Notes: a model not told the origin generated them from the sequence alone. A stretch of DNA of 64,000 nucleotides from Myxococcales bacterium (GCA_049841135.1 JASGHK010000008.1:83272-147271); one strand, 5' to 3'. Shown: positions 691 to 47,210, counted from the first letter of the stretch. Numbers and translations: made by a program.

Positions 691-2216
691 GGCGACGGCC
701 CTCACCCCCCAGCCCCCTCTCCGGCAACCCCTCGGCACGCTCGGGACGGGGACCGAGAGGGGGTGACTTGGCCTCCGCCGGCGTGCTTGCCTTCGCGCTC
801 TGCCTGCCCTTTGCCGTTCGGGCCGAGGAGGCTCCCCGCCCTAGCGAGGAGGAGATGTTCGGCGCGCCGGCGGCGGCTCCGGCGGCGGAGACGCCAGCGA
901 AGGCCGACCCGCAGCCCGCGAAGGCCAAGCTGGACGAGCACGGGCGTCCCACCGAGGACTCGATGTTCGGCGACGGCCCGCCTCCCGCGCCCAAGGCCTC
1001 CGAGGCCGCCCAGGAGAGCGTCCCCGAGGACCCGCTGAAGATCGGCGGGCAGTTCTACACGCGCGCCTACACGACCCTGAGCACCGAGACGGACCCTGAG
1101 AAGTGGGGATTCTCGGTGCCCACGCTGCTCGACGGCTACCTGGATGCGCGGCCCAACGACCGGGTGCGCGGCTTCATGCTCGCCCGCCTCGCCTTCGACC
1201 CGATGGTGCCCAACGCCGCGGGAAGCTCGCCCCCGAGCTCGCCCCTCGGCAGCCAGCAGAAGCTCTCCATCTCGCTGGATCAGCTCTGGCTGCGCTTCGA
1301 CATCTACCGCGCGGTCTACGTCACCGTCGGCCGCCAGCACATCAAGTGGGGCCCGTCGCATTTCTGGAACCCCACCGACTTCCTGCACAATGTCCGCCGC
1401 AACCCGCTCGACCCCTTCGACGCGCGCGAGGGCTCGACCATGCTCAAGGTGCAGGTGCCCTGGGAGAAGATGGGCTGGAACCTGTACGCCATCGGCCTCT
1501 TCGAGGACGCCATCGTCGACGGGACGCTCTCCAACATCGGCGGAGGCCTGCGCGCGGAGATCGTCGTCGGCCCGGCGGAGATCGGCGCGGAGGCGCTCTT
1601 CCAGAAGGGGCACCGCCCGCGGCTCGGCGCGGACCTCAGCGCCGGCGTCGGGCCCATCGACGTCTACGCCGAGGCGTCGCTGCGCAAGGGCTGGGAGCGC
1701 TTCGCCCAAGGAACCGATCCCTCGATGGGCGCCGTCGGGACCTGGGAGAACGACTACACCCTGCAGGCCTCGGGCGGCCTGTCGTGGTCGCTCTCCGTCC
1801 ACGACATCAACGTGCTCACCGTGGGCGCCGAGTACTTCTTCAACTCCGTCGGCTACGACGACAAGGCGATCTACCCGGCCCTCATCAACGCCGGCGCCTT
1901 CAGCCCCTACTACACCGGCAAGCACTACCTGGGCGTCTACGGGATGCTCAACACGCCGGCGAGCTACCACAACCTGAGCGTGATCCTCTCCAACGTCGGC
2001 AACCTCTCCGACCGCTCCTTCGTCGCGCGCCTGGACGTCTCGGTCATCGTGCTGACGCACCTGCGCATCGAGGGCTACACGGCGTGGCACTACGGTCACC
2101 GCGGCGGCGAGTTCCGCTTCGGGGGGGAGCTGCCGGCCACCGACCCGGGGACGCCGGCGGTGAACGTGGCGGCCCCGCTGTGCGAGTTCGGCGTGGGGCT
2201 GCGCGTGAACATCTGA
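687..2216 (+). CDS. secreted/outer-membrane protein of unknown function (possible beta-barrel partner of the LolA-like gene)
   Basis: ATGA start/stop overlap with the upstream gene. The N-terminus has a signal-peptide-like LASAGVLAFALCLPFAVRA. Long aromatic/Gly-rich body consistent with an OM beta-barrel. The larger listed ORF 207..2216 only adds an out-of-frame overlap with gene 1. Confidence 0.4.
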   Translation: MRRRPSPPSPLSGNPSARSGRGPRGGDLASAGVLAFALCLPFAVRAEEAPRPSEEEMFGAPAAAPAAETPAKADPQPAKAKLDEHGRPTEDSMFGDGPPPAPKASEAAQESVPEDPLKIGGQFYTRAYTTLSTETDPEKWGFSVPTLLDGYLDARPNDRVRGFMLARLAFDPMVPNAAGSSPPSSPLGSQQKLSISLDQLWLRFDIYRAVYVTVGRQHIKWGPSHFWNPTDFLHNVRRNPLDPFDAREGSTMLKVQVPWEKMGWNLYAIGLFEDAIVDGTLSNIGGGLRAEIVVGPAEIGAEALFQKGHRPRLGADLSAGVGPIDVYAEASLRKGWERFAQGTDPSMGAVGTWENDYTLQASGGLSWSLSVHDINVLTVGAEYFFNSVGYDDKAIYPALINAGAFSPYYTGKHYLGVYGMLNTPASYHNLSVILSNVGNLSDRSFVARLDVSVIVLTHLRIEGYTAWHYGHRGGEFRFGGELPATDPGTPAVNVAAPLCEFGVGLRVNI

Positions 2217-2523
2217 CGCCGCTCCGGCACCAGGCTTCGCCTTCCCCCAACCCCAACCCCTCCTCGGGGTCTTGATCGCCTCCGAGGCGACGGTGGGCCG
2301 GTGCGCGCCAAGGCGCTGCGCCGGCCACTGGTCGCCACGCCGGGTCTCGAGCCCGAGCGCCCCCACCTCCGCCCTATCGTGCCGCCTCACGCGGGGTCCT
2401 TGCTCGCCTGCCGACCGTTCGCAGCTTTCGCCCGTTCGGCCGAGAAGGAAGCAAGCGAGCGCTGGGGGGTCCTTCGCTCGAGCGGTCGGACGAAACCGGG
2501 TGGAGTTGGGAGGCGGGACACAG

Positions 2524-2688
2524 ATGATGAAGCAGATTTCGAGGCTGTGGGCGGACGAGAGCGGTGCGACGGCGGTCGAGTACGGGCTCATCGTGGCGCT
2601 GATCGCCGTGGTGATCATCGCGGCGACCACCGCGCTGGGCACCAACGTCAGCAACACCTTCCAGACGGCTGCCGACTCGATGCCGTAG
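2524..2688 (+). CDS. flp: Flp/Fap family type IVb pilin
   Basis: 55-aa product MMKQISRLWADESGATAVEYGLIVALIAVVIIAATTAL... carries the classic Flp motif (G/ATAVEYGLI). RBS ggaggcgggacacag precedes the ATG. Confidence 0.9.
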   Translation: MMKQISRLWADESGATAVEYGLIVALIAVVIIAATTALGTNVSNTFQTAADSMP

Positions 2689-2715
2689 TTCGGCCCCTCC
2701 CGCCCGGACGCCGCC

Positions 2716-3225
2716 ATGACCTGGCCGTTGCATGCCCTAGTCGTGCTGGGAGCCCTCCTCGCCGCCGCTTCGACGTGGGACTTTGCGGAGAGGCGGATCC
2801 CGAACGGGCTGATCCTCGCCGTCGCGGCGACGGGCCTCTTCCTGCAGGGATTCTCCCGAGGCGCGCCAGGCCTCGCCTCGGGACTTGCCGCCAGCCTCGT
2901 CGTGGGGGCCCTCCTTTGGGGCCCCTGGGCGACTGGCCGGGTGGGCGGCGGCGACCTGAAGCTCGCCGCCGCCACCGCCATCAGCCTTGGACTCCTCCGC
3001 CTGCCGCTCTTCTTGCTCGCGACCGCCGTGGTCGGGGGCTTCGTCGCCGCGGGCTACTACGCGACCTCGCCTCGCGCGGAGCGCGCAGAAGTCCGCTCGC
3101 GCCTGGCCGGCCTCGCGACGACCGGGTCGCTCTCGCTCGTGTCTGGGAGCGACCGCCGCGCGAGCGTCCCCTACGCCGTGGCGATCGCCCTCGGGACCCT
3201 CGTCGCGCTGCGGTGGGGAGGCTGA
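2716..3225 (+). CDS. cpaA: prepilin peptidase CpaA/TadV (A24 family)
   Basis: Polytopic membrane protein with WDFAERRIPNGLIL and GGGDLKLAAA motifs typical of CpaA. Sits immediately downstream of flp. Confidence 0.8.
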   Translation: MTWPLHALVVLGALLAAASTWDFAERRIPNGLILAVAATGLFLQGFSRGAPGLASGLAASLVVGALLWGPWATGRVGGGDLKLAAATAISLGLLRLPLFLLATAVVGGFVAAGYYATSPRAERAEVRSRLAGLATTGSLSLVSGSDRRASVPYAVAIALGTLVALRWGG

Positions 3226-3226
3226 C

Positions 3227-3616
3227 ATGCGCGCTCGCCATCGCCAGGCCCGGAACCAGCAGGGCGCCTCCGCCGTCGAGTTCGCGCTGGTCCTTCCGCT
3301 GCTTCTGCTCCTCGTGATGGGCACGATCGACTGGGGCTACTACTTCTTCACCGAGCAGATCGTCGTCAACGCGTCCCGCGAAGGCGCCCGGGCCGGCTCG
3401 CTGGCCACGCTGGGAGACGCGTCCTCCCAGGCCTCGGTGGCGGCGGCCCAGTACCTTACCCGCGCGGGCCTCGACTCGTCCCGCGCGACCATCCTGGCGA
3501 CTCCGAGGACGGACTCGATCGCCGTCAGCATCACCTACCCCACCGGGTCGCTCACCGGCTTGAGCACCTCGTGGGTCCCCGCGGCTGCGCGCGCCGACGC
3601 CGAGATGCGTCGCTGA
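3227..3616 (+). CDS. tadE: TadE/TadG-like pilus assembly protein (pseudopilin-like)
   Basis: N-terminal GASAVEFALVLPLLLLLVMGTIDWGYYF is the TadE-like (PF07811) signature. Start 2 nt after the cpaA stop. Confidence 0.75.
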   Translation: MRARHRQARNQQGASAVEFALVLPLLLLLVMGTIDWGYYFFTEQIVVNASREGARAGSLATLGDASSQASVAAAQYLTRAGLDSSRATILATPRTDSIAVSITYPTGSLTGLSTSWVPAAARADAEMRR

Positions 3617-3636
3617 GCCCGTAGCGGAGGAGCGTC

Positions 3637-4638
3637 ATGGCCGAGCTCGTCGAACGCCTCACTGGGGCCCCGCGCAAGCCGCCGCCCCGCGGCTCCGGCG
3701 CCCGCGCCGCCGCCTTCCTGGCGATGGCCGTGATCGCCGCGCTCGGCGCGGGCCTGCTCTTCAGCCGCTACCTCGATCGCCGGGGAGCCTCGGGCGTGGC
3801 CACCGTTCCGGTGGTGGTCGCCGCCGCGGACCTGCCCATCGCCACCTCCTTGCGCGCCGACCTGCTGACCGCCGTACCCTGGCCCAAGGCCTCGGTGCCG
3901 GCCGGCGCCGCCGCCGATGTGGCGGCGCTCAAGGGCCGGGTCACCACCGCGCCCATCGCCAAGGGCGAGCCCATCCTCCCCTCGCGGCTCTCGAGCGGGG
4001 ACACCGCGCAGGGCCTGGCGGCCGTGCTGCCCGACCAGATGCGCGCCGTCTCCGTCCGCGTCGACGACGTGGTGGGCGTCGCCGGCTTCATCCATCCGGG
4101 CGACCGCGTGGACGTCATCGTCACCATGAAGCCCCACGAGGACGTCGACTCGCCGGACACCTCGAAGATCATCCTCCAGAACATCAAGGTCCTCGCGGTG
4201 GGCAAGGACCTCGACCCGAAGGCCAAGCCGTCCGAGAAGGCCGTCCCGGCCACCGTCGCCACGCTGATGGTCTCGGTGTCCGACTCCGAGCGCCTGGCGC
4301 TCGGCTCGACCAAGGGGCACCTCCTGCTGGCGCTGCGCGGCGGCGCCGACACCACCGACTACGGGACCGACGGGGTGACTCCACCCGAGCTGCTCGGCAC
4401 GCCTGCCTCGGCCACTCCGGAGCCGGCGCCTGCCGCTCCACCGTTGCAGGCCTCTGCGAACTGCCCGATTCCCGCCGCCCGTCCGGTACCGGCGCGCGCA
4501 GTGCCGGCGCGCGTGGTGGCGGCCAAGAAGCCCGCCCCCGCCGACAAGCCGGCGCCGGTCCCGTCGCAGGAGGTCGAGATTCTGCGCGGGGACCGCTTCG
4601 AGACCCGTGAGTTCAAGAAGCCGGAGGCCACGCCGTGA
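3637..4638 (+). CDS. cpaB: Flp pilus assembly protein CpaB (SAF/RcpC family)
   Basis: N-terminal TM segment followed by a CpaB-like domain (IAKGEPILPSRL, FIHPGDRVDVIV, NIKVLAVG) and a Pro/Ala-rich C-terminus. In operon position. Confidence 0.85.
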   Translation: MAELVERLTGAPRKPPPRGSGARAAAFLAMAVIAALGAGLLFSRYLDRRGASGVATVPVVVAAADLPIATSLRADLLTAVPWPKASVPAGAAADVAALKGRVTTAPIAKGEPILPSRLSSGDTAQGLAAVLPDQMRAVSVRVDDVVGVAGFIHPGDRVDVIVTMKPHEDVDSPDTSKIILQNIKVLAVGKDLDPKAKPSEKAVPATVATLMVSVSDSERLALGSTKGHLLLALRGGADTTDYGTDGVTPPELLGTPASATPEPAPAAPPLQASANCPIPAARPVPARAVPARVVAAKKPAPADKPAPVPSQEVEILRGDRFETREFKKPEATP

Positions 4639-6138
4639 ACGCGCTCGCCCTGACCGTCCTGCTGTCGCTGGGCGCCGCACCGGCCCGGCCCGCCGCCCCG
4701 CCCCCACCGCCACTCCCGCCCCCGCCCCCGACCTCGCCGGCGGCGGCGAGCCCCGCGGCGCCGGCGGAGGCCCCTTCCCCGGCCGAGCTGCGCATCGACC
4801 GCGAAGTGAGCGCGATCAAGGAGCTCTCGCTCGAGTCCGGCCAGAACCGCCTGCTCGTCGTCTCCGAGGACATCGCCCGCGTCGCGGTGGCCGACCCGAA
4901 CGTCGCCGACCTGAAGGTGGTCACCCCCACGCAGCTCTTGCTGACGGCGCGCGAGCCGGGCAACACCGACCTGACCCTCTGGAACCGCGCCAACCAGCCG
5001 CTGGTCGTCGCCCTGCGCGTGGCCCGCAACCTCGAGGGCCTGCGCAAGCAGCTCAAGGAAGCTCTTCCCCGGCGAGGACGTGCGGCTCTCGGCGGCCGGC
5101 GACCTCCTGGTGCTCGAAGGACAGGTCAGCGACGTGCGCATCCCGGAGCGGGTCGGCGAGGTCGCCAGGCTCCACAGCAAGCAGGTCGCCAACCTGCTGC
5201 AGGTCACCGGCCAGCAGCAGGTCCAGCTGGAGGTGCGCTTCGCCGAGGTCTCGCGCGCGGCGATGCGCGAGATGGGGGTGCACTTCTTCCACAAGCAGGA
5301 GGGGACGCGCGTCGCGGGCATGACCGGCCCGGGCACCAGCCCCGGCAACTTCCTCAACACCACCTCCAACCCCTCCATCCCCGGGGCCGGCGTGCGCAGC
5401 GGCACCGGCCAGCCGCCGGACGTGCTGGCGCCGATGTTCAGCAACGCCTTCTCGCTCTTCTTCTCGCAGAACTTCTCGGGGTTCCCGTTCAGCGTCACCC
5501 TGAACCTGCTCGCCGAGAACGACCTCGCCAAGATCCTGGCCGAGCCGACGCTGGTCACCCTCACCGGCCAGGAGGCGAAGTTCCTCGCCGGCGGCGAGGT
5601 GCCCATCCCCATCTCCTCGGCGCTGGGCCAGGTCAACGTCACCTGGAAGAAGTTCGGCATCCTGCTCAACTTCACCCCCACCGTCATCGGCCAGGACACC
5701 ATCCACCTCAAGCTCGCCACCGAGGTGAGCGAGCTCGACCCCACGCTCTCGGTGACCGTGGCCGGCAGCACCATCCCCGGCTTCTCCTCGCGGCAGGGCG
5801 AGACCACGGTCCGGCTGGGCGACGGGCAGAGCTTCGCCATCGCCGGCCTGCTCACCGACCGCACCCGCTCGCAGGTGGCCAAGGTGCCGCTGCTGGGAAG
5901 CATCCCGGTGCTGGGGGCGCTGTTCCGCTCGACCTCCTACCGCCGCGAGGAGACCGAGCTGCTGGTGGTGGTCACCGCGCGGCTGGCGCGCCCCATGGCG
6001 CCGCACGAGCTGCCGCCCCTGCCCACCGACGAGGTCCGCCCGCCCAGCGACTGGCAGATCTTCCTGCTCGGCGCCGAGCAGGGCTTGCGGCCGCCATCGC
6101 AGGGCGGTCCGGCCGGCGCGGTCGGGTTCCTGCGCTAG
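4635..6138 (+). CDS. cpaC: CpaC/RcpA secretin, apparently interrupted by a +1 frameshift near 5066-5069
   Basis: The N-terminal half (frame of 4635) reads as signal peptide plus BON-like pilus-formation domain (VADPNVADLKVVTPTQLLLTAREPGNTDLTLW). The C-terminal half (frame of 5080) is the secretin domain (LNLLAENDLAKILAEPTLVTLTGQEAKFLAGGEVPIP...GDGQSFAIAGL...VPLLGSIPVLGALF). Deleting one C from the C4 run at 5066-5069 yields the continuous LKEALPGEDVRLSAAGDLLVLEG. Confidence 0.8.
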
Positions 6139-6166
6139 CGACGGAAGAGGACGAGGAGGAGAGAGC

Positions 6167-7322
6167 ATGCCCGAGGCCCACGACCGCAACGAGACGACGC
6201 TCCTGGTAGGGGTCGGCCCCGATCTGGAGGCCCGCTTCCTTCCCGCGCTGGGCGCGCTCCCCCTCGAGCGGGTTCCGGCCGAACCCCAGGCCGTCGCCGA
6301 GGCCCTGGCCCGCGCTCACCCCGCGGCGGCCCTGGTCGCCCTGCTGCCCGCGGCCGCCGACCCAGCGCTGCAGCTCGTCCGGCAGCTCGCCGGCGGCGGC
6401 GTCCGGGTGGTGGTGGTGGCTCCCGAGCGGAGCGCGGAGCTCATCCTCCGGGCCATGCGCGCCGGCGCGCAGGAGTACCTCGTCCCCGGCGAAGAGAAGG
6501 CGCTGGCGACGGCGCTCAGCGGAGGCGCCGAGCACGGCCCCGGATCGGTCGTCGCGGTCCTCGCGGCCAAGGGTGGGCTGGGCGCCACGTCGGTGGCCGC
6601 GCACCTGGCCGGCGCGCTCGTCCACAGTGGCGCCCGCGCCTGCCTCCTCGAATCTCGATCAGGACTCGGGCGACGTGCTCCCCACCCTGGACCTTCAGGG
6701 GCGCTACGACCTCGGCGAGCTGCGGGCCAACCTGCACCGCCTGGACCGCGAGCTGCTCGACACCTCCCTCGAGCGGCACCGCGCCGGCTTCTTCGTGATC
6801 GGACAGACGGAGACCGCCGACTCCTCCCGCCGCCTGGAAGAACGCGAGGTCCCCGGCCTGCTCGCCTTCCTGCGCCAGCATTTCCGGCACGTGGTGATCG
6901 ATGGCCTGCGCCGGCTCGACGGGCCGGAGCTCGCCGTGCTGGAGGCCGCCGAAGCCGTCGTCCTGCTGGTGACCCAGGAGGTGGTGGCGGTGCGGGACGC
7001 CCGCCGCGCCCGTGAAGCCCTGGAGCGCCTCGGCGTCGGCGAGCCGCGCCTGCGCCTGGTCGTCAACCGCTTCCAGAAGGGCTCGCGCATCGACCTCGGG
7101 CTCCTGTCCGACACCGTGGGCCTGCCCGTGGCGGCCACGCTGGCCAACGACTGGCCCTCTCTGGGAGCCGCGGTGCAGCGCGGCGCCCTGCTCTTCGAGA
7201 CCGCCCCGCGCTCGGCGCTCGCCCACGACCTCTCGGCGCTCGCGGCCTCGCTTCCCGGGGCCAGCGCGCCCGCGCCGTCCCACCCGCGACCGCTCTGGTC
7301 GCGCCTGCTGTCCAGGAGGTAG
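6167..7322 (+). CDS. cpaE: CpaE (receiver-like N-domain plus MinD/ParA-type ATPase), apparent +1 frameshift near 6651
   Basis: The N-terminal frame ends at ...VVAVLAAKGGLGATSVAAHLAGALVHSGARACLL. The next frame continues DLDQDSGDVLPTLDL...VIDGLRRLD...VVLLVTQEVVAVRDARRAREAL...LVVNRF. Removing one A at 6651-6652 restores ...ACLLDLDQDSGDV (the CpaE-type deviant Walker region). Confidence 0.75.
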
Positions 7323-7325
7323 CCG

Positions 7326-8667
7326 ATGGGGTTGATCGACCGAGCGCGGGGCCGCGCCCCGGAAGCCGCCGCGGCAGCCGAGGGACTGGCCGCGAACCAG
7401 CAGCAGTTCCACGACCTGAAGGCCGACCTCCATCGGCGGCTGGTGGATCGCATCGACCTGCGCACCCTCGAGAGCCTCCCGCCGGACCGCGTCCGCGAGG
7501 AGCTGCGAAGCGTGTTGGGCGCCATGGTCCAGGAGAAGCTCGTTGCCACTCAGCCGCGCCGAGCGCGAGCGGATGGTCCAGGAGCTCATCGACGAGCTCA
7601 TCGGCCTGGGGCCTCTCGAGCCGCTGCTGCGCGACCCGACCATCAGCGACCTGCTCGTCAACACCTACGCCACCACCTACGTCGAGCGCCGCGGCAAGCT
7701 CGAGCTGACCCCGGTGCGCTTCCGCGACAACGACCACCTGCTGCAGATCATCAACCGCATCGTCTCGCGGGTGGGACGCCGGGTCGACGAGGCCTCGCCG
7801 ATGGTCGACGCCCGGCTCGCCGACGGCTCGCGCGTCAACGCCATCATCCCCCCGCTCGCCATCGACGGCCCCTGCCTGTCCATCCGCCGCTTCGGCTCCG
7901 CGCCCCTGCGGCTGCTCGAGCTGGTCGAAGGCGGCAGCGCGCCGCGCGAGGCCCTGGCCTTCCTGGGCGCCGCGGTGCGCGCCAAGCTCAACGTCCTCAT
8001 CAGCGGCGGCACCGGCAGCGGCAAGACCACGCTGCTCAACGCCCTCTCGGCGTTCATCCCCGACGGCGAGCGGGTGGTGACCATCGAGGACTCGGCCGAG
8101 CTCAAGCTGCAGCAGAAGCACGTCGTGCGCCTGGAGACCCGCCCGCCCAACATCGAAGGCGTCGGGGAGATCGTCGCCCGCGACCTCGTCCGCAACAGCC
8201 TGCGCATGCGCCCCGACCGGATCATCATCGGCGAGGTCCGCGGCGCCGAGGTGCTGGACATGCTGCAGGCCATGAACACCGGGCACGAGGGCTCGATGAC
8301 CACCGTGCACGCCAACACCCCGCGCGACGCGCTGGCCCGCATGGAGGCGATGGTGGGGATGAGCGGGGTCCCCATGGCCGACGGCGCGGTGCGCCAGACC
8401 ATCGCCCGCGCGCTCAACGTGATGGTGCAGCTCAACCGCTACACCGACGGCAAGCGGCGGCTCTCGAGCATCGCGGAGATCACCGGCACCGAGGGTCCCA
8501 CCATCACCTTGCAGGAGATCATCCGCTTCGAGCAGCAGGGGGTCGACGCCCAGGGCCGCGTCGTCGGGCGCTTCGTGGCCACGGGGGTGCGGCCGCGCTG
8601 CACCGAGCGGATCGAGCGGGCGGGCATCGACGCCGACGAGCTCTTCGCGCGCATCGCGGGGGCCTAG
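7326..8667 (+). CDS. cpaF: CpaF/TadA secretion ATPase, apparent +1 frameshift near 7545-7556
   Basis: N-terminal frame: [47 protein letters not shown]. Downstream frame: [18 protein letters not shown]...[16 protein letters not shown] (Walker A)...[33 protein letters not shown]. This is the VirB11/GspE-like ATPase of Tad systems. Confidence 0.85.
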
Positions 8668-8671
8668 AGCG

Positions 8672-9637
8672 ATGCGCCAGGCCCTGATCATCCTCGTCAG
8701 CCTCGTGACGGCCGCGGCCTTCGAGGGCCTCTTCCACCTCGCGCGCTACCTGCGCGAGCGGCAGGCCGCGGACCTGCGGCGCCGCTTGCGGCTGCTGGAC
8801 TCGGGCGAGGCCTCCGGCACGCTCGGGCTGCTGCGCAACGAGCGCTACGCCGCCAACCCGCTGCTCGACCCGTTGGTGCGGTCGTTGCCGTTCGCAGCCT
8901 CGCTGGAGCGGCTGCTGGCCCAGGCGGACTCGCCGCTCACGGTCGCCCGGCTCCTGGCGGGCTGCGTGGCCGGAGCGGTGGTGGGCCTGGGCGTCCCGCT
9001 CACCTTGGGTTTGGGGCTATTGCCGTCGCTGGTCCTCGGCGCGACGGGCGCGGCGCTGCCGATCTTCGCGGTGGTCGTCGCGCGGGAGCGCCGCGCCGAG
9101 CGCCTGAGCGAACAGCTCCCGGAGGCGCTGGACATGATGAGCCGCTCGCTGCGCGCCGGGCACGCCTTGCCCGAGGCGTTCCGGCTGGTGGCCTCGGAGA
9201 TGCCCGTCCCGGTCAGCGTCGAGTTCGGCCGCGCCTACGAGGAGCAGCGGCTAGGGCTCGCCGCGGAGCAGGCGGTGGTGAGCATGACCGGGCGCACGCC
9301 CGGCTGCCGGGACCTGAAGATCTTCGCGGTGTCGGTGCTGGTGCAGAAGGAGACCGGCGGCAACCTCGCCGAGATCCTCGAGAACATCGCCACCACCATC
9401 CGCGACCGCTACCGCTTCTACGCCAAGCTCAAGGCGCTGACCGCCGAGGGCCGCGCCTCGGGGATGGTCCTGGGCTGCCTGCCGATCGCCATGGTGGGCC
9501 TGCTCTCGGTGCTCAACCCCAAGTACCTGTCCCGGCTGTTCGACAACCCGCTGGGCAACTTCATCCTCGCCTACGCGGTGCTCACCTGGGTCGCCGGCGC
9601 GGTGTGGATGTACCGGATGACCAAGGTCGACTACTGA
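8672..9637 (+). CDS. tadB: TadB (T2SS-F domain inner-membrane platform protein)
   Basis: T2SSF-like domain (LPEALDMMSRSLRAGHALPEAFRLVASEMP; KETGGNLAEILENIATTIRDRYRF) with flanking TM helices. Confidence 0.8.
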   Translation: MRQALIILVSLVTAAAFEGLFHLARYLRERQAADLRRRLRLLDSGEASGTLGLLRNERYAANPLLDPLVRSLPFAASLERLLAQADSPLTVARLLAGCVAGAVVGLGVPLTLGLGLLPSLVLGATGAALPIFAVVVARERRAERLSEQLPEALDMMSRSLRAGHALPEAFRLVASEMPVPVSVEFGRAYEEQRLGLAAEQAVVSMTGRTPGCRDLKIFAVSVLVQKETGGNLAEILENIATTIRDRYRFYAKLKALTAEGRASGMVLGCLPIAMVGLLSVLNPKYLSRLFDNPLGNFILAYAVLTWVAGAVWMYRMTKVDY

Positions 9638-9652
9638 CCCCCGAGGGACCCG

Positions 9653-10591
9653 ATGGACTCCGGCCTGTGGACCTTCGCGCTCGCATCGCTCCTCGCCGGG
9701 CTCGCGCTCGCCGGCCTCGGCGCGGGCGCCTGGAGCTTGCGGCGCGAGAACCCGCTCGCGCGGCGCCTGCGGGGCCCGGAGGCCTTCGAGGAGCACGGCT
9801 CCGACGGCCTGGGGCGGGGCGAGGGGCCGTCCCGAGCGCTGGTGGCGTTGGGCTGGGTCGCCCGGGGCGGCGACGCCGAGGTCAGCGCGCTCCGGCGCAA
9901 GCTCGTCCAGGGCGGGCTGCGCCAGCCATCCGCGCTGCAGGTCTTCCTGGCCGCCAAGGTCGCCCTGGCCTTGTCCTTTCCGCTCGCGTTCCTCGCGATC
10001 CACGCGACCTTCCCGCAGCCGATGCGCTTCGCGGCCGTGGTGGCGGTCTGGCTCTGTGGCGGCGGCTTCTTCCTCCCCAACCTGTGGCTCAACGCGCGGG
10101 TGACGAGTCGGCGCCAGCTCATCGACCGCGGCCTGCCCGACAGCCTCGACCTGCTGGTGACCTGCGTGGAGGCCGGCCTGGGGCTCGACGCCGCGATGCT
10201 CCGCGTCTCCCAGGACAGCGCGCTGTGCGCCCCCGCCCTCGCCGAGGAGCTGCGGCTGACGTCGCTGGAGACGCGCGCCGGCATCCCCCGGCCCGAGGCC
10301 TTCCGCCGCCTCTACGAGCGCACCGGCTGCGACGAGCTCAAGTCGCTGGCCGCCACGCTGGCGCAGGCGGAGATGTTCGGCACCAGCGTCGGGCTCGCGC
10401 TCCGCGTCCAGGCCAAGGGCATCCGCGTCAAGCGCATGTTCCGGGCCGAGGAGCGCGCGGCCATCGTCTCCGTGAAGATGACGATCCCCCTGGTGCTGTG
10501 CATCCTGCCCAGCCTGCTGGCGGTGGTCATCGGGCCCGGGGCGGTCAACATCTACCAGCAGCTCTTCGCCAAGCTCGGCGGAGGTCACTGA
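9653..10591 (+). CDS. tadC: TadC (T2SS-F domain inner-membrane platform protein)
   Basis: Second T2SSF-like membrane protein (LPDSLDLLVTCVEAGLGLDAAMLRVS...AEMFGTSVGLALRVQAKGIRVKR). Confidence 0.8.
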   Translation: MDSGLWTFALASLLAGLALAGLGAGAWSLRRENPLARRLRGPEAFEEHGSDGLGRGEGPSRALVALGWVARGGDAEVSALRRKLVQGGLRQPSALQVFLAAKVALALSFPLAFLAIHATFPQPMRFAAVVAVWLCGGGFFLPNLWLNARVTSRRQLIDRGLPDSLDLLVTCVEAGLGLDAAMLRVSQDSALCAPALAEELRLTSLETRAGIPRPEAFRRLYERTGCDELKSLAATLAQAEMFGTSVGLALRVQAKGIRVKRMFRAEERAAIVSVKMTIPLVLCILPSLLAVVIGPGAVNIYQQLFAKLGGGH

Positions 10592-10592
10592 C

Positions 10593-11390
10593 ATGCGCGC
10601 TTCGTTCCCGGCCGTGCTGGCCTTCGTCGCACTGCTGCTGGCCCAAGGCTGCGCGCACACCCGGCCGCCGGCCGACGAGACCTCCGCGCTGCGCAAGGCG
10701 ATGGCCCGCCACGCGGTGCGGCAGGGCCAGTGGGCCGCCGCGATGGACCTCCTCTCGGAGCTCTACCGCGCCTCGCCCAGGGACGCCGAGGTGCTGGCCC
10801 TGCGCGGAGTGGCGCTGCGCGAGCAAGGGCTCCTGCACGAGGCCGAGACGGAGTTGCTCGAGGCGGTGCGGCTGGCGCCGGACTACGCCTGGGGGCAGGC
10901 GCAGCTCGCGGTCCTGCTCGATCTGCTCGAGAAGCCCGACCAAGCGCTGGTCCACCACCGGAGGGCGGTGGCGCTGGAGCCGGAGAACCCGGGCTGGCTC
11001 AACAACCTCGCCTTCTCGCAGTTCGCGCGCGGGCAGACCGCCGAGGCCATCGAGGGCTACCGGCACGCGGTGCGGCTGGCGCCCAACGACGCGCGCATCC
11101 GCAACAACCTGGGCTTTGCCCTCGCCCGCTCGGGCGACTTCCGGGCCGCGGCCGAGCAGTTCCGGCACGCCGGCGGCGCCGCCGACGCGCGCATCAACCT
11201 CGGCCTGGCCTACGAGATCGCCGGGAACCTGGCGCAGGCCTTCGACCTGTACCTGGAGGCGGCCCGGCTCGACCCGGGCTCGACGAAGGCGCGCTCGAAC
11301 CTGGAGCACGTGGCGCAGCGGCTGGGGCGGGCGGTGCCGCAGACGGCAGCCCTCGAGACGACTGGAGCGGAGGGGAGGCAAGGGCCATGA
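10593..11390 (+). CDS. TPR-repeat lipoprotein (TadD-like)
   Basis: Lipoprotein signal (LLLAQGCAH) and several TPR units (AWGQAQLAVLL..., NPGWLNNLAFSQFARG..., ARIRNNLGFALARSG...). Start overlaps the tadC stop. Confidence 0.7.
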   Translation: MRASFPAVLAFVALLLAQGCAHTRPPADETSALRKAMARHAVRQGQWAAAMDLLSELYRASPRDAEVLALRGVALREQGLLHEAETELLEAVRLAPDYAWGQAQLAVLLDLLEKPDQALVHHRRAVALEPENPGWLNNLAFSQFARGQTAEAIEGYRHAVRLAPNDARIRNNLGFALARSGDFRAAAEQFRHAGGAADARINLGLAYEIAGNLAQAFDLYLEAARLDPGSTKARSNLEHVAQRLGRAVPQTAALETTGAEGRQGP

Positions 11391-11725
11391 GGTTGGGCAT
11401 CAAGGGGTGGGTGGGGCTGGGCGCGCTGGCGGCGTCGCTGGGCGGCTGCGCGGGCCCGGAGCACCTGGGGTCCGGGACCACCGGGGCCGCGACGCGCGCC
11501 GTCGCCACCCTGCAGGCCGTGCGGCCGCCGTCGAAGGTGGCCGCGAAGGCGGCGACCGGCTTGGATTCGCAGGAGGCGGCGATCATCTCGGAGGCGTACC
11601 GTCGCTCGCTGGCGCCCAAGGGCGCCGCGGTCGACGAGCCGTCGGTGCTCTTCGTCGCGCCGAACAGCGCCAAGGCGCAGGGCCGCGCGCTGCCTCCGCC
11701 GTCCGTGCCGCCCAAGGAGAGGTGA
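11387..11725 (+). CDS. small lipoprotein of unknown function (tad locus)
   Basis: ATGA overlap with the upstream stop. Product MRLGIKGWVGLGALAASLGGCAGPE... has a lipobox LGGC. 112 aa. Confidence 0.5.
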   Translation: MRLGIKGWVGLGALAASLGGCAGPEHLGSGTTGAATRAVATLQAVRPPSKVAAKAATGLDSQEAAIISEAYRRSLAPKGAAVDEPSVLFVAPNSAKAQGRALPPPSVPPKER

Positions 11726-11730
11726 TCCGC

Positions 11731-12738
11731 ATGCTCCGACTCCGTTCCGACGAGAGCGGGGGCTCGGCGGTGACCGTGGCCATCGCCCTGCTGGCGCTCG
11801 GGGGCTTCATGGCCCTGGTGCTCAACATCGGCCACCTCATGGCCGTTCGCGGGCAGCTCCAGAACGCCTGCGACGCGGCCGCGCTGGCCGGGGCCCAGGA
11901 GCTGGACGGGACTCCGCAAGGGCTCTCCCGGGCGCGCGCCCTGGCGGTCGACTTCGCCTCGCGCCACGACACCGACCGCGGCATCGAGGTGGCCATCGAC
12001 CCGGCCACCGACGTCGTCCTCGGGACCTGGCGAGCCAGCGACTCGTCCTTCACCCCGCTCTCGGAGAGCGCCCCGAACGCTCCCAGGCTCATCAACGCCC
12101 TGCAGGTGCAGGCCGGGCGCGAAGCGGACCGCGGCAACCCGCTGTCGGTCTACTTCCCGGTCTTCCTGGGCGGGCGCAGCGAGACCAGCGTCAGCGCCTC
12201 GGCCATCGCCGCCCGCGGCGCGCCGTGCGACGGCTGCTCGATCCCGCTGGTCTTCGCCGACTGCCTCGTGCTCCGGGCCGACGGCTCGGTGAATTGCGGG
12301 GAGACGCTGGTCTTCCGCAGCGACACCACCGACAACGTCGGCTTCTCGCTGCTGCAGGACGGCGTGCGCACGGTGAGCACCAGCGGCATCATCAACGTCC
12401 TCCACGGCACCTGCACCGGCGTCGACGTCGGGGACGACATCGGCGTCGGCAACGGCAACCAGCTCAACAACAACGTGGTGAAGGCCTTCGAGGACTACCG
12501 GGCGCTGCACGGGTCGCACGTCACCGTGCCCATCGTCTCGCCGCCCAACGGCTGCCCGGCCAAGTTCAACGGCCTCTTGCCGGTGGTGGGCTTCGCCAGC
12601 TTCACCATCACCGCTGTGACCGGGCCGCCCAACCAGTCGATCTCGATCAGGCTCGACTGCGAGAAGGCGATCCCCTCGCGCGTGGTGGGCTGCGGCTTCT
12701 TCGGCACCGTCTCGGAGAAGCCGGCGCTGGTGCACTGA
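11731..12738 (+). CDS. TadG-like pilus assembly protein (Tad_N/PF13400-like N-terminus)
   Basis: MLRLRSDESGGSAVTVAIALLALGGFMALVLNIGHLMAVRGQLQNACDAAALAGAQEL is the TadG-type putative Flp-pilus-assembly N-domain. RBS aaggagaggtgatccgc precedes the ATG. Confidence 0.65.
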   Translation: MLRLRSDESGGSAVTVAIALLALGGFMALVLNIGHLMAVRGQLQNACDAAALAGAQELDGTPQGLSRARALAVDFASRHDTDRGIEVAIDPATDVVLGTWRASDSSFTPLSESAPNAPRLINALQVQAGREADRGNPLSVYFPVFLGGRSETSVSASAIAARGAPCDGCSIPLVFADCLVLRADGSVNCGETLVFRSDTTDNVGFSLLQDGVRTVSTSGIINVLHGTCTGVDVGDDIGVGNGNQLNNNVVKAFEDYRALHGSHVTVPIVSPPNGCPAKFNGLLPVVGFASFTITAVTGPPNQSISIRLDCEKAIPSRVVGCGFFGTVSEKPALVH

Positions 12739-12741
12739 CCG

Positions 12742-14077
12742 CTACGGGCCGAAGGTGGCTTTGAGCCCCTGCTCGATGCCGGCCTCGAACTGCCCGGCGA
12801 GCTCCGGGGCGAACAAGACGCGCTTGGCCTCGCCAGTCCCCTGCTTCACGGCCTCGGCCGTCTCCACGTAGCCCACGTAGCCCTGCGCGAAGGAGACGAG
12901 CGCCAGCCGTTCGCCCGGCGCCAGCATCGGCGCGAGCTTCTTGCGCCACTCGAACGACACCGAGGACGTCGGCTCCCCAGGGAGCATCACCAGCGAGAGC
13001 CCCGGCACGCGCAGCAGCGCGAAGCTCCGCCTTGCGCGGCGCCAGCGCGTGCAGCACGTTCGCCGCCGGCATGCTCAGGAAACCGGGAACGGCGTGCTCG
13101 GCCTCGGCGCGTGGCATCCCGACCTCCACGGCCGCCCAGCGCAGCGATGGGGCCGCCGGTGTCGCGGCCGCCAGCAGGGCCTCCTGCGCCGCCTGGGCCA
13201 CCCGCGCGCCCATCCGGTCCACCGGCTCGCCTTCGCCCTCCTTCGGCGGGTCCGAGCTCTGGTCGCCCATCGCCCCCTGCAGCAGGAGCGCCACCCCGCC
13301 CCCGTCCGCCTCGAGCCTGCGCATCGTCCGCCCGGGCCAGTCGCCGTCGAGCGCCTTCGGGTCGCGGCCGACGACCGTGGCGTGCGAGCCGAAGACCACC
13401 AGCCGCGAGACCGCCTTGCCCTGGGCGTCGTCCACCGCGAGGACGGTGAGCAGGTCGTCGTTGGGCGCGCCATCCCGGTCGCGGTTGTAGAGGATGCCGG
13501 GCAGCGGTGCCTGCGCGACGCGGACCTGGGCCGGCGCGAGCGCCTGGTTCGCCTTGTCCAGCGCCTCCTTCAGCCGCGCGATCAGCGCGTCCTCGCGCTC
13601 CTGCTGCCAGCTGCCGGTGGCGCCGATCTCCGCGACGGGGTTGCGGTCGTAGCCGCCGAAGGACGAATGGGTGTGCGTGGCGGTGACCGCCGCGTCGGCG
13701 AGCCCCAGCTCCTTCGCGCGAGCGCGGACGGCCTGGGCGACGCGCTGGGGGATCTCCAGCACCTCGGCGCTGATCAGCGCGACCGACTTGTCGCCCGCGG
13801 ACAGGACCAGCGCTCGCGCCGAGAGCGGCCCACTGGTCTTGGCGGTCGGCCGCGGCGGCGGATATCCGGCGACCGTGGCCGGAAGCGCCGCGTCCATCTC
13901 CACCTTGGCGGCGCCGGCCCTCCACTGCTCCGCGACCGCGGCCGCCTGCGCGACGACCTTGGGCTCGGGCAGCGGCCTCCTCCCGCGCCAGTCGAGCGAG
14001 AAGAGCACGTAGAGCATGCCCAGCGTGTAGACGACGACGAGCGCGCGGGACGACCGGCGGGGCTTCAGCTCAGGCAC
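12742..14077 (-). CDS. neutral/alkaline ceramidase-like hydrolase, apparent +1 frameshift near 13024
   Basis: GTG start at 14077 with GGAGG 9 nt upstream. N-terminal TM segment, then LGLADAAVTATHTHSSFGGYDRNP (ceramidase-like THTHS motif). The C-terminal 88 aa (VPGLSLVMLPGEPTSSVSFEWRKKL...GLKATFGP) lie in another frame ending at 12742. Confidence 0.5.
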
Positions 14078-14153: not shown

Positions 14154-15008
14154 ATGGCCTCTCGCATCGCGGACATCTTGCACCGGGCCAAGCTCATCGA
14201 CGACCTGCAGCTGCGCTCGGCGACGGCGCACCAGGCCCAGTGGGGCGGCCGCATCCCGACCATCGTCATCGAGAAGAAGTTCGTCTCCGAGGAGAAGGTC
14301 GTCGACGCCATCGCCAACGCGATGAAGCTGCCCAAGGTCGACCTCGGCACGGTGGAGACCGACGCGGCGGCCATCGGCAAGCTCGACGCCGACTTCTGCA
14401 AGGTCAACGCGGTCTTCCCCTGCGCGCTCAAGGACAACGGCAAGTCGCTGTGGCTGGCGATGGTCGACCCCACCAACCTGCCGGTGGTCGACGAGGTCGC
14501 GCTCAAGGCCAAGGTCCGCGTCAACCTGGTGGTGGCGAGCGAGCGCCAGGTCCAGGCCGCCATCAAGCGCGCCTACTACGGCGAGTCCCCGAGCACTCCG
14601 CAGAGCTTCGGCAACTTCACCTCCATCGAGGTCCCGGTCGGCGAGGAGGAAGAGGGGAAGATCGTCGACATGTCGGGGCACACCTTGATCAAGAACATCA
14701 AGGACATCGTGCCCCAGGCGGCCAAGAAGGCCCCGCCGGTCGGCGACGGCGCCGACGACGTGGCGTTCAAGGACGCCAAGCCGGGCATGGTCACCGGGGC
14801 CCTGCAGATGCTCGACGAGATGTTCGGCCCGGAGGACGGTGTCCCCTCCCGCCCGACCTGGACCGACCAGGACCTCGAGCGGCTGCGCGCCATCCAGGAC
14901 CAGCAGGAGAAGGGGGCGCGCATCCTGCGCGCCGTGCTCGACCTGTGCGTGGCCAAGGGCTACTTCTCGCCCGACGAGTACCGGCTCAAGCTCAAGAAGC
15001 TGATGTAA
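14154..15008 (+). CDS. MshEN / T2SSE_N domain protein (putative c-di-GMP-binding)
   Basis: ILHRAKLIDDLQLRSATAHQAQWGGRIPTIVIEKKFVSEEKVVDAIANAMKLPKVDL...KSLWLAMVDPTNLPVVDEVALKAKVRVNLVVASERQVQAAIKRAYYG matches the GspE/MshE N-terminal domain, found as stand-alone proteins in myxobacteria. TATAAT sits at 14128-14133 upstream. Confidence 0.6.
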   Translation: MASRIADILHRAKLIDDLQLRSATAHQAQWGGRIPTIVIEKKFVSEEKVVDAIANAMKLPKVDLGTVETDAAAIGKLDADFCKVNAVFPCALKDNGKSLWLAMVDPTNLPVVDEVALKAKVRVNLVVASERQVQAAIKRAYYGESPSTPQSFGNFTSIEVPVGEEEEGKIVDMSGHTLIKNIKDIVPQAAKKAPPVGDGADDVAFKDAKPGMVTGALQMLDEMFGPEDGVPSRPTWTDQDLERLRAIQDQQEKGARILRAVLDLCVAKGYFSPDEYRLKLKKLM

Positions 15009-16265: not shown

Positions 16266-17913
16266 CTAGTTCTTGGCCTCGGACTTCGCGGCCGCGAGGT
16301 TGGAAGACAGGATGAGGTCGCCCTTCTTGAGCCAGCTGCCGTCGTCGAAGGCGGCGTAGAAGTCGCCCAGCACCGCGTCGAAGTCCGGGTAGCGGTCCTC
16401 GCGGCGGTCCTGGGTCATCTTGTCGAAGAGCGGGTCGAGCTTGCTCGGCACCTTGTTGTTGACCTGGCTGGGCAGCGGCGAGCGGCGGCCCGGCAGCTGG
16501 CCGGTGAGCATCTCGTAGAAGAGGATGCCCAGGCCGTAGACGTCGGTCACCGGGCCGGAGTCCTTGGTGGAGCGCGCCAGCTGCTCGGGGCTCATGTAGC
16601 CCATGCCGCCGGTGCCCACGAAGACCTGGGGCATGCCCTTGCTGGCGTCGACTTCGATGACCCGGCCCAGGCCGAAGTCGGTGAGCTTGATGTTGCCCAG
16701 GTGGTCGAGGAGCACGTTCTCGGGCTTCAGGTTGCCGTGCGTCAGGCTCTGGCCGTGGGCCATGCGCAGCGCGTAGGAGAGCTGCAGGAAGTAGCGGATG
16801 GCCTCCTCGGCAGGCAGGCCCTTGCCGCCGGCGGCGTCCATGCGGGTGCGCAGGTTGCCGCCCGAGCAGAGCCTCGACGACGTAGTACGGCCGCGCCACG
16901 TCGCAGTTCTGGTCGAGGATGGTGGCGACGTTGGGGTGGCGCACCAGGGCCTGCGCGCAGATCTCGCGCTTGAGGCGCTTGATGACCTCGCTGCGCTGCA
17001 GGAAGGAGAAGTAGCCGAAGATGTCCTTGAGCTCCTTGATGGCCACGTCCAGCCCCAGCGCCGTCTGGCGGCCGCGGTAGACCGTGCCCAGGGGGCCCTG
17101 GCCGAGCGCGTCGTACTTGACGTAGCGCAGGTCAATCTCCTGGCCCTTGGGCTCGTTCTTGGCGACTTCCGGCGCGGGCGGCTTGGGCAGGTTGCTGGGC
17201 GGAGGCGGCGGGATCTCGGCGACCCGCGGCGCGGTCTCCTCGCGCGCGGCCCGGCCGGAGTCGGCGCCGTCCATCTGGGCGCCGCGCCCACGCCCGCCCT
17301 TGCCGCCGCCGCCGCGACCGAAGACCGACGGAGGAGGCGGAGGCGCAGGCACCTCGACCTTGGCGGCCTGCGCGGGGCGCAGCGGCTCGGGCTCGTCCTC
17401 GGTGGCAGGGGGCGGAGGAGGTGGCGGCGCGCCGGCGGCGGCGGTCATCTCGTGGTCGACCGAGGAGTCCGCGAGGATCTCGGTCTGGCTGGACACCACC
17501 GGCTCCTCGGTGATGCGCGAGGCGAAGTACTCCTGCACCGCCTCCAGGAAGCGGTCGCGGCGGTCGCCGTCGACGATCTTCTCGCCCTCGGGCGTCAGCT
17601 GCAGGCACGCCTCGCGGTCCATGCCGATGAAGTGGTACTTGCGCAGGAAGAAGAAGTAGGTGTCGAAGTCGATGGACACCTGGTTCTCGAACGCGCTCTT
17701 GACGTCGGCGAGCTTGTTGGAGCGCGACGCACGGGAGTTCTCCCGCAGCGTCCCGAGGATGTTGAGCGCTTCTTCGGCGATCTGGTCCCGGGTCAAGGCT
17801 TTCTCCGGCGTGGCCCCGTCTTCATCGGGGGTTGGAAGGCGCCGCGGGTGCTTTCCGCAGTGCGTGGGGGAAAAAAGGCCGAGCGATTCTAACAGAGGCC
17901 GCTCTACCGGCAA
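16266..17913 (-). CDS. Ser/Thr protein kinase (Hanks-type), apparent +1 frameshift near 16862-16870; N-terminal start uncertain
   Basis: N-terminal frame gives a Pro-rich linker then kinase subdomains I-V (LGQGPLGTVYRGRQTALGLDVAIKELK...PYYVVEALLG). The other frame continues GGNLRTRMD...HGNLKPENVLLDHLGNIKLTDFGLGRV...GYMSPEQ...DVYGLGILFYEMLTGQLP. Confidence 0.75.
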
Positions 17914-40941: not shown

Positions 40942-41770
40942 TTAGCTCTCCGTCACGAGGATCCGATCCCCGTGGCTCGGCGGCGCCGACACCACCAGGA
41001 ACCGCAGCTCCTCGGCGCTGGCGTTGGCGAACCGGTGCGGCACGCAGGGCGCGACCTCCATCCCCTGCCCTGCCTCCAGCGCGTGCGTCGCGCCCGCCAC
41101 CTCGAAGCTCGCCCGCCCGCTCAGGATGAAGAAGAACTGCCTCGCCTTCCGGTGCAGATGGCGCAGCTCGCTCGTGCCCGGACGCATCTGCTCCTGGATG
41201 ACGCTCAGCCCCTCCGCGCGCACCAGCCGCCAGCCGTCGTTCTGCTCGCCCCAGACATAGTGCTCGACGCTCTCGCGCACGACGGGACGGCTCGCGCCTC
41301 GCGATAGGTCGAGCTCGAAGAAGAGCGCCCCGGGCACCGGGTTGGGCCGGTACGGCGCGATTCTCCTGGAACCCCAGCTGCCGATAGAGCGCGATGGCCT
41401 TCGCCATCAAGGGTAGCGTGTCGAGCCGCATGCGTGAGCAGCCTCGGCTGCGCGCGGCGGCGATCACCGCCCCGACCAAGCACGCCCCCAGCCCGAGCCC
41501 ACGGTGCTGCGGCCGAAGATAGAGGCGCTTCATCTCGCCGATGCCCGGCTCAAGCTGCCGCAGCGCGACGCAGCCGGCCAGCACGCCATCGACGCGGGCC
41601 ACGAGCAAGGTCCCGCTCGGCGCCGCGTATTCGCCCGGCAGCGAGGCCAGCTCCTTCTGGAAGCCCTGGAAGCAGAGGTCGACCTCCAGCGAGGCCGCGT
41701 ACTCCTGGAACAGCTCACGCACCTCGTCCATGGAACGGGGCGCTTCGATGGCGATGGTCGGGGCAGTCAT
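40942..41770 (-). CDS. GNAT N-acetyltransferase reading through into a cupin domain if one base near 41365-41375 is removed (fusion or frameshifted pair)
   Basis: ATG 41770. GNAT core LLVARVDGVLAGCVALRQL...MKRLYLRPQHRGLGLGACLV...LYRQLGFQE. The shifted frame gives IAPYRPNPVPGALFFELDL (the usual GNAT C-terminus) but continues without a stop into the cupin WGEQNDGWRLVRAEGLSVIQEQMRPGTSELRHLH. Confidence 0.55.
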
Positions 41771-45955: not shown

Positions 45956-46000
45956 TAACCGAGCGCCCCGCCGCTCAATCTCAGAAAGCAGGAGCCCGAA

Positions 46001-47122
<1,122 letters not shown>

Positions 47123-47125
47123 CCT

Positions 47126-47152
47126 TCACCCCGAGCTCGTCGAGGGGTCAGA
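47126..47152. repeat. 27-nt motif copy 3 (ttcaccccgagctcgtcgaggggtcag) directly after the recA stop
   Basis: See 19297..19324. Confidence 0.7.
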
Positions 47153-47167
47153 GTTTGCCGAAAGGCC

Positions 47168-47210
47168 GCCGGCCGGGCCGCCACGTGCGTTTCGGCCGGC
47201 TCGTTTTTTT
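47168..47210 (+). terminator. rho-independent terminator candidate for recA
   Basis: gccggccg (47168-75) pairs with cggccggc (47193-200) and is followed by tcgTTTTTTT (47204-10). Confidence 0.55.

Follow-up and report, generated by a model that had tools for sequence, protein, structure and literature searches.

The Tad/Flp pilus locus of Aggregatibacter actinomycetemcomitans has the gene order flp-tadV-rcpCAB-tadZABCDEFG, and related machines have been studied in Pseudomonas aeruginosa (Flp/Rcp/Tad) and in Caulobacter crescentus (Cpa, pilA-cpaA-K). The Caulobacter-type machine is portrayed, in PMC11300603 and PMC12019362, as running on one bifunctional motor ATPase. The Kil apparatus of Myxococcus xanthus is derived from Tad, with which it shares the CpaA, CpaB, CpaC, CpaF, TadB/C, Flp and TadE/G-like parts (PMC8460266, PMC12075869). 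Its hallmarks are two gene clusters (MXAN_3102-3108 and MXAN_4648-4661), an ATPase fused to an FHA domain (KilF), many FHA proteins, a single ATPase and no TadD (Seef et al. 2021, PMC8460266), to which later work has added tip triplets (kilLMN) and a requirement for a needleless type III secretion system, T3SS* (Herrou et al. 2025, PMC12075869). Here we analyse a stretch of 64,000 nucleotides from a Myxococcales bacterium (GCA_049841135.1, JASGHK010000008.1:83272-147271), hereafter the window, in which an initial annotation had placed a complete, possibly Kil-like Tad/Flp locus of twelve co-directional genes at 2524-12738. We argue that these genes probably form a conventional Tad/Flp (type IVc) pilus operon, and that the frameshifts interrupting three of them would be long-read errors and not biological; we put the probability of this reading at roughly 85%.

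A single-cluster Tad/Flp gene set in a member of the Myxococcota

At a G+C content of ~72%, raw lists of open reading frames (ORFs) from the window were uninformative, and coding was traced by a frame plot of G+C at third codon positions (GC3) together with a Viterbi path over codon usage. Coding on the + strand is unbroken from 2524 to 12738 and comprises twelve co-directional genes, in agreement with the extent and gene list first proposed. Gene identities (Table 1) are based on Pfam, NCBIfam and PDB searches, with Pfam families found for 11 of the twelve products. The genes had been described as mostly overlapping, but only two of the 11 junctions are overlaps, of 4 nt each (cpaB/cpaC and the junction between the TPR and small lipoprotein genes), the others being gaps of 1-28 nt. 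With junctions this tight, the block is operon-like. The intact products are identical to those in GenBank MGC4122011-MGC4122024, which are records of a “Myxococcales bacterium” metagenome-assembled genome (MAG) with a contig of 1,652,613 bp, and these exact matches bear out the myxobacterial context. Names from the Prokaryotic Genome Annotation Pipeline (PGAP) are already deposited there (Flp pilin, A24 peptidase, CpaB, CpaF family, type II secretion system (T2SS) F family, TadG-related). A GGGAGG ribosome-binding site lies upstream of flp; a promoter and terminator scan of 2100-13000 returned nothing exceeding shuffled expectation, and the window yielded no matches to Rfam families or tRNAs.

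Of the parts by which a Tad system is recognised, the following were found: a Flp prepilin, a short A24 peptidase, a CpaF/TadA-type ATPase, two GspF-like platform proteins, an RcpA/CpaC secretin together with RcpC/CpaB, and a TadZ/CpaE protein adjoining the motor ATPase (CpaC, CpaE and CpaF after repair, see below). Profile searches against Pfam and NCBIfam returned matches to secretin, T2SSE, two T2SSF, CpaB, Flp, TadE and TadG. The secretin/ATPase pair, whose absence after frameshift correction had been named as grounds for giving up the Tad assignment, is present, both proteins being full-length after deletion of a single base per gene. The complete single-cluster Tad/Flp locus seen in the initial annotation stands. 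Flp scores 62.4 bits against PF04964 (cutoff 32.2), carries the processing motif G/ATAVEY (GATAVEY, residues 14-20) and is identical to MGC4122011, a “Flp family type IVb pilin”. CpaA (MGC4122012) has both catalytic Asp motifs (D22 in DFAERRIP and D80 in GGGDLK), and CpaB exceeds the equivalog cutoff of NCBIfam TIGR03177 (pilus_cpaB) with 225.6 bits versus 71. The best PDB relatives of CpaC are RcpA 8odn and 8jvb, and the best solved relative of CpaF is Caulobacter CpaF (9e24/8rkd, E~1e-127, residues 23-437). For CpaE, the CbiA/ParA matches lie just over cutoff, the Walker A motif is deviant (KGGLGAT) and the NCBIfam matches CpaE_hom_Actino and MinD are both under cutoff; a CpaE homolog adjoins cpaF in 68 of the 84 loci that we fetched.

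Orthologous operons outside the Myxococcaceae

A protein search with the repaired CpaF revealed a full-length homolog of 86% identity on a soil metagenome contig (L084) and homologs of 70-75% identity in Anaeromyxobacter terrae, A. soli, Anaeromyxobacteraceae, Polyangia and Myxococcales MAGs. An apparent lack of close myxobacterial relatives was discarded as a sampling artefact, as the protein search and contig look-ups found them: in a scan of a genome collection with CpaF, the matches listed reached at most 63% identity (Acidobacteriota, Planctomycetota and Proteobacteria), and the A. terrae operon (70% identity), found via the protein search, was not among the matches listed.

The synteny comparison with sequenced Myxococcota that the initial annotation had called for showed the twelve-gene order to be conserved in an A. 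terrae isolate (L081; GCA_022690685.1, JALCYY010000013.1) and in a Myxococcales MAG (L082; GCA_050942745.1). Both loci read flp-cpaA-tadE-cpaB-cpaC-cpaE-cpaF-tadB-tadC-TPR-small protein-tadG, identical to the window, with per-gene identities of 41-73% and similar protein lengths, and their genes are intact (CpaC 490/491 aa, CpaE 382/385 aa, CpaF 450 aa). By gene order and sequence, the window block is orthologous to the single-operon Tad loci of Anaeromyxobacter and other Myxococcota outside the Myxococcaceae. The A. terrae operon differs in extending beyond tadG: at 15505-17312 of L081 it has a second flp (60 aa), followed by the gene for a 542-aa protein without Pfam family, and both are missing from the window.

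L081 and L082 likewise have the TPR protein after tadC. It shows weak NCBIfam similarity, under cutoff, to the TPR lipoproteins PilW and Tgl; compared with TadD by sequence, it gave generic or designed TPR matches only in PDB and NCBIfam searches. It occupies the TadD/CpaI pilotin position, and from this position and its domain we infer a pilotin role. The small lipoprotein matches no Pfam or NCBIfam family. In L081 and L082 its place is taken by orthologs of 105-111 aa, which were seen in none of the other fetched loci, a distribution that marks it as a predicted accessory protein particular to this myxobacterial type of Tad locus. The TadG-like protein, likely a tip or priming pilin, combines a long N-terminal helix with a globular alpha/beta part and contains 9 Cys; among the 84 fetched loci, its full-length type is common only to the window, L081 and L082.

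Frameshifts at two palindromes

The frameshifts to which the initial annotation alluded are real. As deposited, the block does not read through in uninterrupted frames: cpaC (~5061), cpaE (~6651) and cpaF (~7538) each carry one extra base and hence a +1 frameshift. The shifts are part of the deposited sequence, in which PGAP annotated truncated cpaC and cpaF products (only a 352-aa ORF at 5080-6138 for cpaC, and a 374-aa ORF at 7543-8667 for cpaF). At the DNA level, exactly one base is in excess at each junction relative to three intact orthologs. At the first site the window has one base more than L081 and L082, and L082 reads GAGCTC there; at the second, L082 has G-ATCTCGATC versus GAATCTCGATC in the window; at the third, the extra base is missing from the three intact orthologs. 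Once repaired, the proteins (500, 384 and 446 aa) align end to end with their orthologs (490/491, 380-385 and 447-450 aa) and are gap-free across the junctions. The CpaC orthologs are 65-73% identical, those of CpaE are full-length, and the Walker A, Asp box, Walker B and His box motifs of repaired CpaF are all intact.

Frameshifts recur throughout the window. At least 12 were found across the 64 kb, at least nine of them in other, unrelated genes (ceramidase-like, PilZ, Ser/Thr kinase, GNAT, secreted protein, TetR, DUF4175 (twice) and Peptidase_MA/TPR). The +1 variants seen, namely GAAGCTC, GAGGCTC, GAGCCTC, GAGCTTC, GAATC and GATTC (the last in the PilZ gene), each correspond to GAGCTC or GATC with one internal base doubled, and at the sole -1 shift a GAGCTC has lost its first G. 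We took junction positions from the Viterbi path, which is blind to motifs (n = 11), and scored a junction as positive when a doubled-base variant lay within 10 nt. This was the case for 10 of the 11 junctions, compared to 0.47 expected, and none of 20,000 random draws was as high. The two remaining sites, the -1 shift and the GATTC of the PilZ gene, agree with this pattern as well. The window also contains 54 unaltered GAGCTC and 229 unaltered GATC sites. Single-base errors that recur at two palindromes of a megabase contig point to systematic base-calling or polishing errors in long reads, probably at methylated motifs: the frameshifts are almost certainly sequencing errors and not pseudogenes. 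GAGCTC and GATC are probably methylated in this organism, both the methylation and the sequencing technology being what we infer from the pattern, which suggests that it has GAGCTC- and GATC-specific methyltransferases.

The rate in the Tad locus (three in 10.2 kb) is near that of the window as a whole (12 in 64 kb), and the motif signature is common to both; thus cpaC, cpaE and cpaF are most likely intact in the organism. Locus-specific pseudogenisation was rejected on these same grounds, rate and an identical motif signature at all sites. Phase variation and programmed frameshifting were also rejected, since the changes are AA or TT doublets inside palindromes and affect unrelated genes; the sites are neither homopolymer tracts nor slippery heptamers. 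If so, the deposited 352-aa secretin, the 374-aa CpaF and the other “pseudogenes” of this record would be artefacts that mislead comparative or pseudogene analyses, while the pattern itself hints at the organism's methylation motifs.

The motor ATPase groups with canonical Tad ATPases

KilF is fused to an FHA domain. Pfam searches gave no FHA match at E of at most 0.01 in repaired CpaF, whose N-terminus aligns with that of Caulobacter CpaF; none of the 120 best CpaF homologs carries this domain, and no FHA-domain protein was found among the twelve products or the flanking genes scanned. To place CpaF we used the 360 KilF/CpaF columns for 24 taxa in Figure 7 source data 1 of Seef et al., one of the four proteins of their supermatrix, and neighbour-joining (NJ) with 300 bootstraps on this 24-taxon subset. 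Over these columns the window CpaF is 57-64% identical to Tad ATPases of Desulfovibrio and Desulfobacter-like taxa, ~53% to CpaF of Caulobacter and Agrobacterium, 50.4% to M. xanthus KilF and 47-51% to homologs from Bdellovibrio, Halobacteriovorax and Bradymonas. The comparison with M. xanthus Kil proteins that had been proposed, run here for KilF, thus places the window CpaF closer to Tad ATPases that are not Kil. In the tree, window and Anaeromyxobacter-type sequences form a group with 100% support, which is joined by Desulfo-type Tad ATPases (96%) and by alphaproteobacterial CpaF (100%), and which was joined to Myxococcaceae KilF in 0 of the 300 replicates. On this tree, the window ATPase groups with canonical Tad ATPases, outside the KilF clade.

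A further Kil trait, a short secretin without N0 domain, is non-discriminating in this respect: CpaC consists of pilus_N and secretin domains only, and KilC is listed with the same domains (PMC8460266, Supplementary file 1). The operon has only one TadE and one TadG-like gene, lying toward opposite ends. Together, the single cluster, the lack of FHA domains, the presence of CpaE and a TPR lipoprotein, and the CpaF placement lead us to read the locus as canonical Tad, and to do so from sequence, since domain content and CpaF clade suffice. The initial annotation had held that sequence cannot decide between a Kil machine and an adhesive Flp pilus, a view that we do not share, and its “possibly Kil-like” finds no support, all Kil hallmarks of Seef et al. 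being missing. The Myxococcota would then hold at least two Tad-derived lineages, the canonical single-operon type (window, Anaeromyxobacter) and the split Kil type (Myxococcaceae). Therefore, a myxobacterial Tad locus should be checked for an FHA-fused ATPase and for its clade before it is read as a predation machine.

Weighing the alternatives

Could the frameshifts be genuine, and the Tad operon of this lineage be in the course of being lost or silenced? In the deposited sequence the core genes cpaC, cpaE and cpaF, which directly follow one another, are interrupted, and PGAP annotated two of the products as truncated. Against decay, there is no further damage, no residues are lost, similarity to the orthologs is kept on both sides of each junction, the same type of single-base error affects at least nine unrelated genes of the window, all such errors sit at GAGCTC or GATC, and the doubled bases lie outside long homopolymer tracts able to act as phase-variation switches. 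We consider decay very improbable. That another type IV filament system (T2SS, MSHA, type IVa or competence pilus) has been mistaken for Tad has a negligible chance of being true. A secretin, a T2SSE ATPase and GspF-like proteins are common to all type IV filament systems, and generic PGAP names such as “type II secretion system F family” would fit any of them; Tad-specific features, however, are the Flp pilin with its G/XXXXEY motif, the short A24 peptidase, a CpaB over the TIGR03177 cutoff, CpaE/TadZ, a pair of GspF paralogs of half size, the domains of TadE and TadG, and CpaF as the best match in the PDB.

In favour of a compact, unsplit Kil apparatus for contact-dependent prey killing, the organism belongs to the Myxococcota, Kil is derived from Tad and retains many of its parts (PMC8460266, PMC12075869), and the TadG-like protein resembles what is reported for KilN tips (PMC12075869) in being rich in Cys and lacking a solved structural homolog. 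Such an apparatus is nevertheless very improbable. CpaF lacks the FHA domain, as do its 120 closest homologs, and no FHA-domain genes lie within or beside the cluster; CpaE/TadZ and a TadD-like TPR lipoprotein are present, as opposed to the single ATPase and missing TadD of Kil (PMC8460266); no kilL-kilN-kilM triplet is apparent in the operon; CpaF is 50% identical to KilF versus 57-64% to other Tad ATPases and grouped with KilF in none of the bootstraps; and orthologous operons exist in Anaeromyxobacter. Several points do weigh against a conventional Tad operon with sequencing errors. The phylogeny is an NJ tree of one protein and a subset of 24 taxa; no TadF or RcpB homolog was found in the locus, where the place of TadF is occupied by the 112-aa product, probably a lipoprotein and not a pilin; and the TPR protein is a putative pilotin by its position. 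The artefact explanation of the frameshifts, though strong, is drawn from the motif pattern, which was found post hoc. Finally, the adhesive function is extrapolated from Tad systems studied in other organisms.

Proposed function

Extrapolating from the Tad systems of Caulobacter, Aggregatibacter and Pseudomonas, we propose that the CpaA peptidase would cleave the Flp prepilin and the TadE and TadG pseudopilins after the conserved Gly. A CpaF hexamer on the TadB/TadC platform, positioned by CpaE/TadZ, would then drive insertion and polymerisation of Flp. Because no second motor is encoded, CpaF probably also depolymerises and retracts Flp, a bifunctionality described for CpaF in PMC11300603 and PMC12019362 and expected here. 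CpaB would serve as the periplasmic conduit to the CpaC secretin, modelled on the role given to RcpC in PMC12307814, and CpaC would form the outer-membrane pore, its insertion aided by the TPR lipoprotein and perhaps also by the 112-aa lipoprotein, while TadE and the TadG-like pilin may prime or cap the fibre. By analogy, such a pilus would be expected to serve in attachment to surfaces, in aggregation or in the sensing of surfaces. It is a long shot that the Anaeromyxobacter-type single-operon Tad, with its lineage-specific, Cys-rich TadG-like tip pilin and 112-aa lipoprotein, serves instead in cell-cell contact (prey or kin recognition) in a manner analogous to Kil; if true, the phylum would possess, besides Kil, another contact machine built from Tad and recruited independently. 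As a conventional Tad operon, the locus has small biological significance, adding one more canonical member, already auto-annotated in GenBank, to a family that occurs in dozens of phyla.

Flanking genes and the rest of the window

The initial annotation had placed genes for cyclic di-GMP (c-di-GMP) receptors (MshEN and PilZ proteins) and a Ser/Thr kinase on either side of the operon, which is wrong, as all of them lie 3' of it (Table 1); on the 5' side are a LolA-like gene and a gene for a protein without Pfam family. The N-terminus of the MshEN protein resembles, by eye, a tandem c-di-GMP-binding motif. By tblastn, the window MshEN and PilZ proteins match nothing in L081 or L082, the syntenic loci, whose flanking genes differ from those of the window, and a PilZ gene beside the L082 operon is not detectably related to that of the window. 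With no counterpart of MshEN and PilZ in the syntenic loci, there is no evidence that these proteins regulate the operon. A functional link between the operon and its flanking c-di-GMP and kinase genes was thus considered and set aside as unsupported, all of them being on one side and MshEN/PilZ not being conserved beside the orthologs.

Table 1. Features of the Tad/Flp operon, frameshift sites and flanking genes (window coordinates).
Feature	Position	Strand	Description
flp, Flp-type (type IVc) major prepilin	2524..2688	+	54 aa; Flp_Fap PF04964, E=3e-17
cpaA/tadV, short A24 prepilin peptidase	2716..3225	+	169 aa; Peptidase_A24 PF01478, E=1.5e-14, 54.7 bits
tadE, minor pseudopilin	3227..3616	+	129 aa; TadE PF07811, E=3e-19; motif G/ASAVEF
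cpaB/rcpC, periplasmic alignment protein	3637..4638	+	333 aa; Pfam SAF and RcpC
cpaC/rcpA, outer-membrane secretin	4635..6138	+	500 aa once one base is removed; Pfam T2SS-T3SS_pil_N and Secretin
cpaE/tadZ, ParA/MinD-like ATPase	6167..7322	+	384 aa after repair; receiver-like N-terminal region; Pfam CbiA/ParA
cpaF/tadA, hexameric motor ATPase	7326..8667	+	446 aa after repair; T2SSE, E=6e-64, 216 bits
tadB, inner-membrane platform protein (GspF-like)	8672..9637	+	321 aa; T2SSF PF00482, 67 bits; MGC4122018
tadC, second platform protein (GspF-like)	9653..10591	+	312 aa; T2SSF PF00482, 66 bits; MGC4122019
TPR protein, probable lipoprotein	10593..11390	+	Signal peptide and Cys20; multiple TPR families
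Small probable lipoprotein	11387..11725	+	112 aa; signal peptide, lipobox LGGC
tadG-like, large minor pilin	11731..12738	+	335 aa; Tad and Tad_C (PF13400 and PF09977)
Frameshift site 1, cpaC	5058..5064	+	GAAGCTC, i.e. GAGCTC with doubled A (+1 base); frame +2 to +0
Frameshift site 2, cpaE	6650..6654	+	GAATC, i.e. GATC with doubled A (+1 base)
Frameshift site 3, cpaF	7535..7541	+	GAAGCTC, i.e. GAGCTC with doubled A (+1 base)
Further frameshifts	13021-13027, ~15740, 16869-16875, 41359-41363, 42171-42177, 44172-44178, 55820-55826, ~56800, 58564-58568		
Ceramidase-like gene	3' of operon	-	
Stand-alone MshEN-domain protein	14154-15005	+	284 aa, no ATPase domain; PGAP “general secretion pathway protein GspE”
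PilZ protein	start 16219	-	
Ser/Thr kinase	16269-~17620	-	

Elsewhere in the window, 21988-23622 encodes a secreted or lipoprotein-like product with repeated Cys-rich CxTDADCxxGxxC modules and a weak DUF7107 match. Just 3' of recA (45959-47119), ~1.3 kb without coding signal precede an IS4/Tn5-like transposase gene (Tnp_DNA_bind and DDE_Tnp_1; 48303-49772, in the region 47118-49883), and a truncated ubiE-like fragment lies at 49988-50311 (- strand). The region 53816-58931 encodes a DUF4175 protein of ~1,080 aa, with two frameshifts, followed by a Peptidase_MA/TPR protein with one; this looks like a Bat/aerotolerance-like envelope gene pair. In the region 59060-64000, a comM/YifB-like gene (ChlI domain) ends after ~230 aa at ~59750 and is followed by a large serine recombinase gene (59679-61388, - strand), contained in a block of ~66% GC without GC3 coding signal that extends to at least 63 kb. 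The region has the appearance of a comM gene into which a mobile element or prophage has inserted.

Comparison with known Tad systems

The part list of the window locus matches that of C. crescentus Cpa, and its CpaF is 53% identical to the Caulobacter protein over the conserved core. The gene order and the accessory proteins differ, however: tadE directly follows the peptidase gene in the window, no CpaD homolog was detected in the locus, and a lineage-specific lipoprotein of 112 aa is present. In gene order, the locus is near-collinear with A. actinomycetemcomitans tad and P. aeruginosa Flp/Rcp/Tad, the collinear parts being the pilin, peptidase, RcpC, RcpA, TadZ, TadA, TadB, TadC, a TPR lipoprotein at the TadD position and TadG. 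In contrast to these loci, tadE has moved upstream of rcpC/cpaB, the small lipoprotein stands in the TadE/F position, and RcpB and TadF homologs were not detected in the locus; among solved structures, CpaC is closest to the Tad secretin RcpA (PDB 8odn).

M. xanthus Kil, likewise from the Myxococcota, shares with the window the peptidase, secretin, ATPase, CpaB, two platform proteins, the Flp pilin and TadE/G-like minor pilins, but differs in its split clusters, FHA-fused ATPase and many FHA proteins and in having neither CpaE/TadZ nor TadD (PMC8460266), as well as in its kilLMN tip triplets and functional link to the T3SS* (PMC12075869). The closest match in layout is with the A. terrae and Myxococcales MAG operons, L081 and L082, which alone share with the window both the small lipoprotein and the full-length TadG type.

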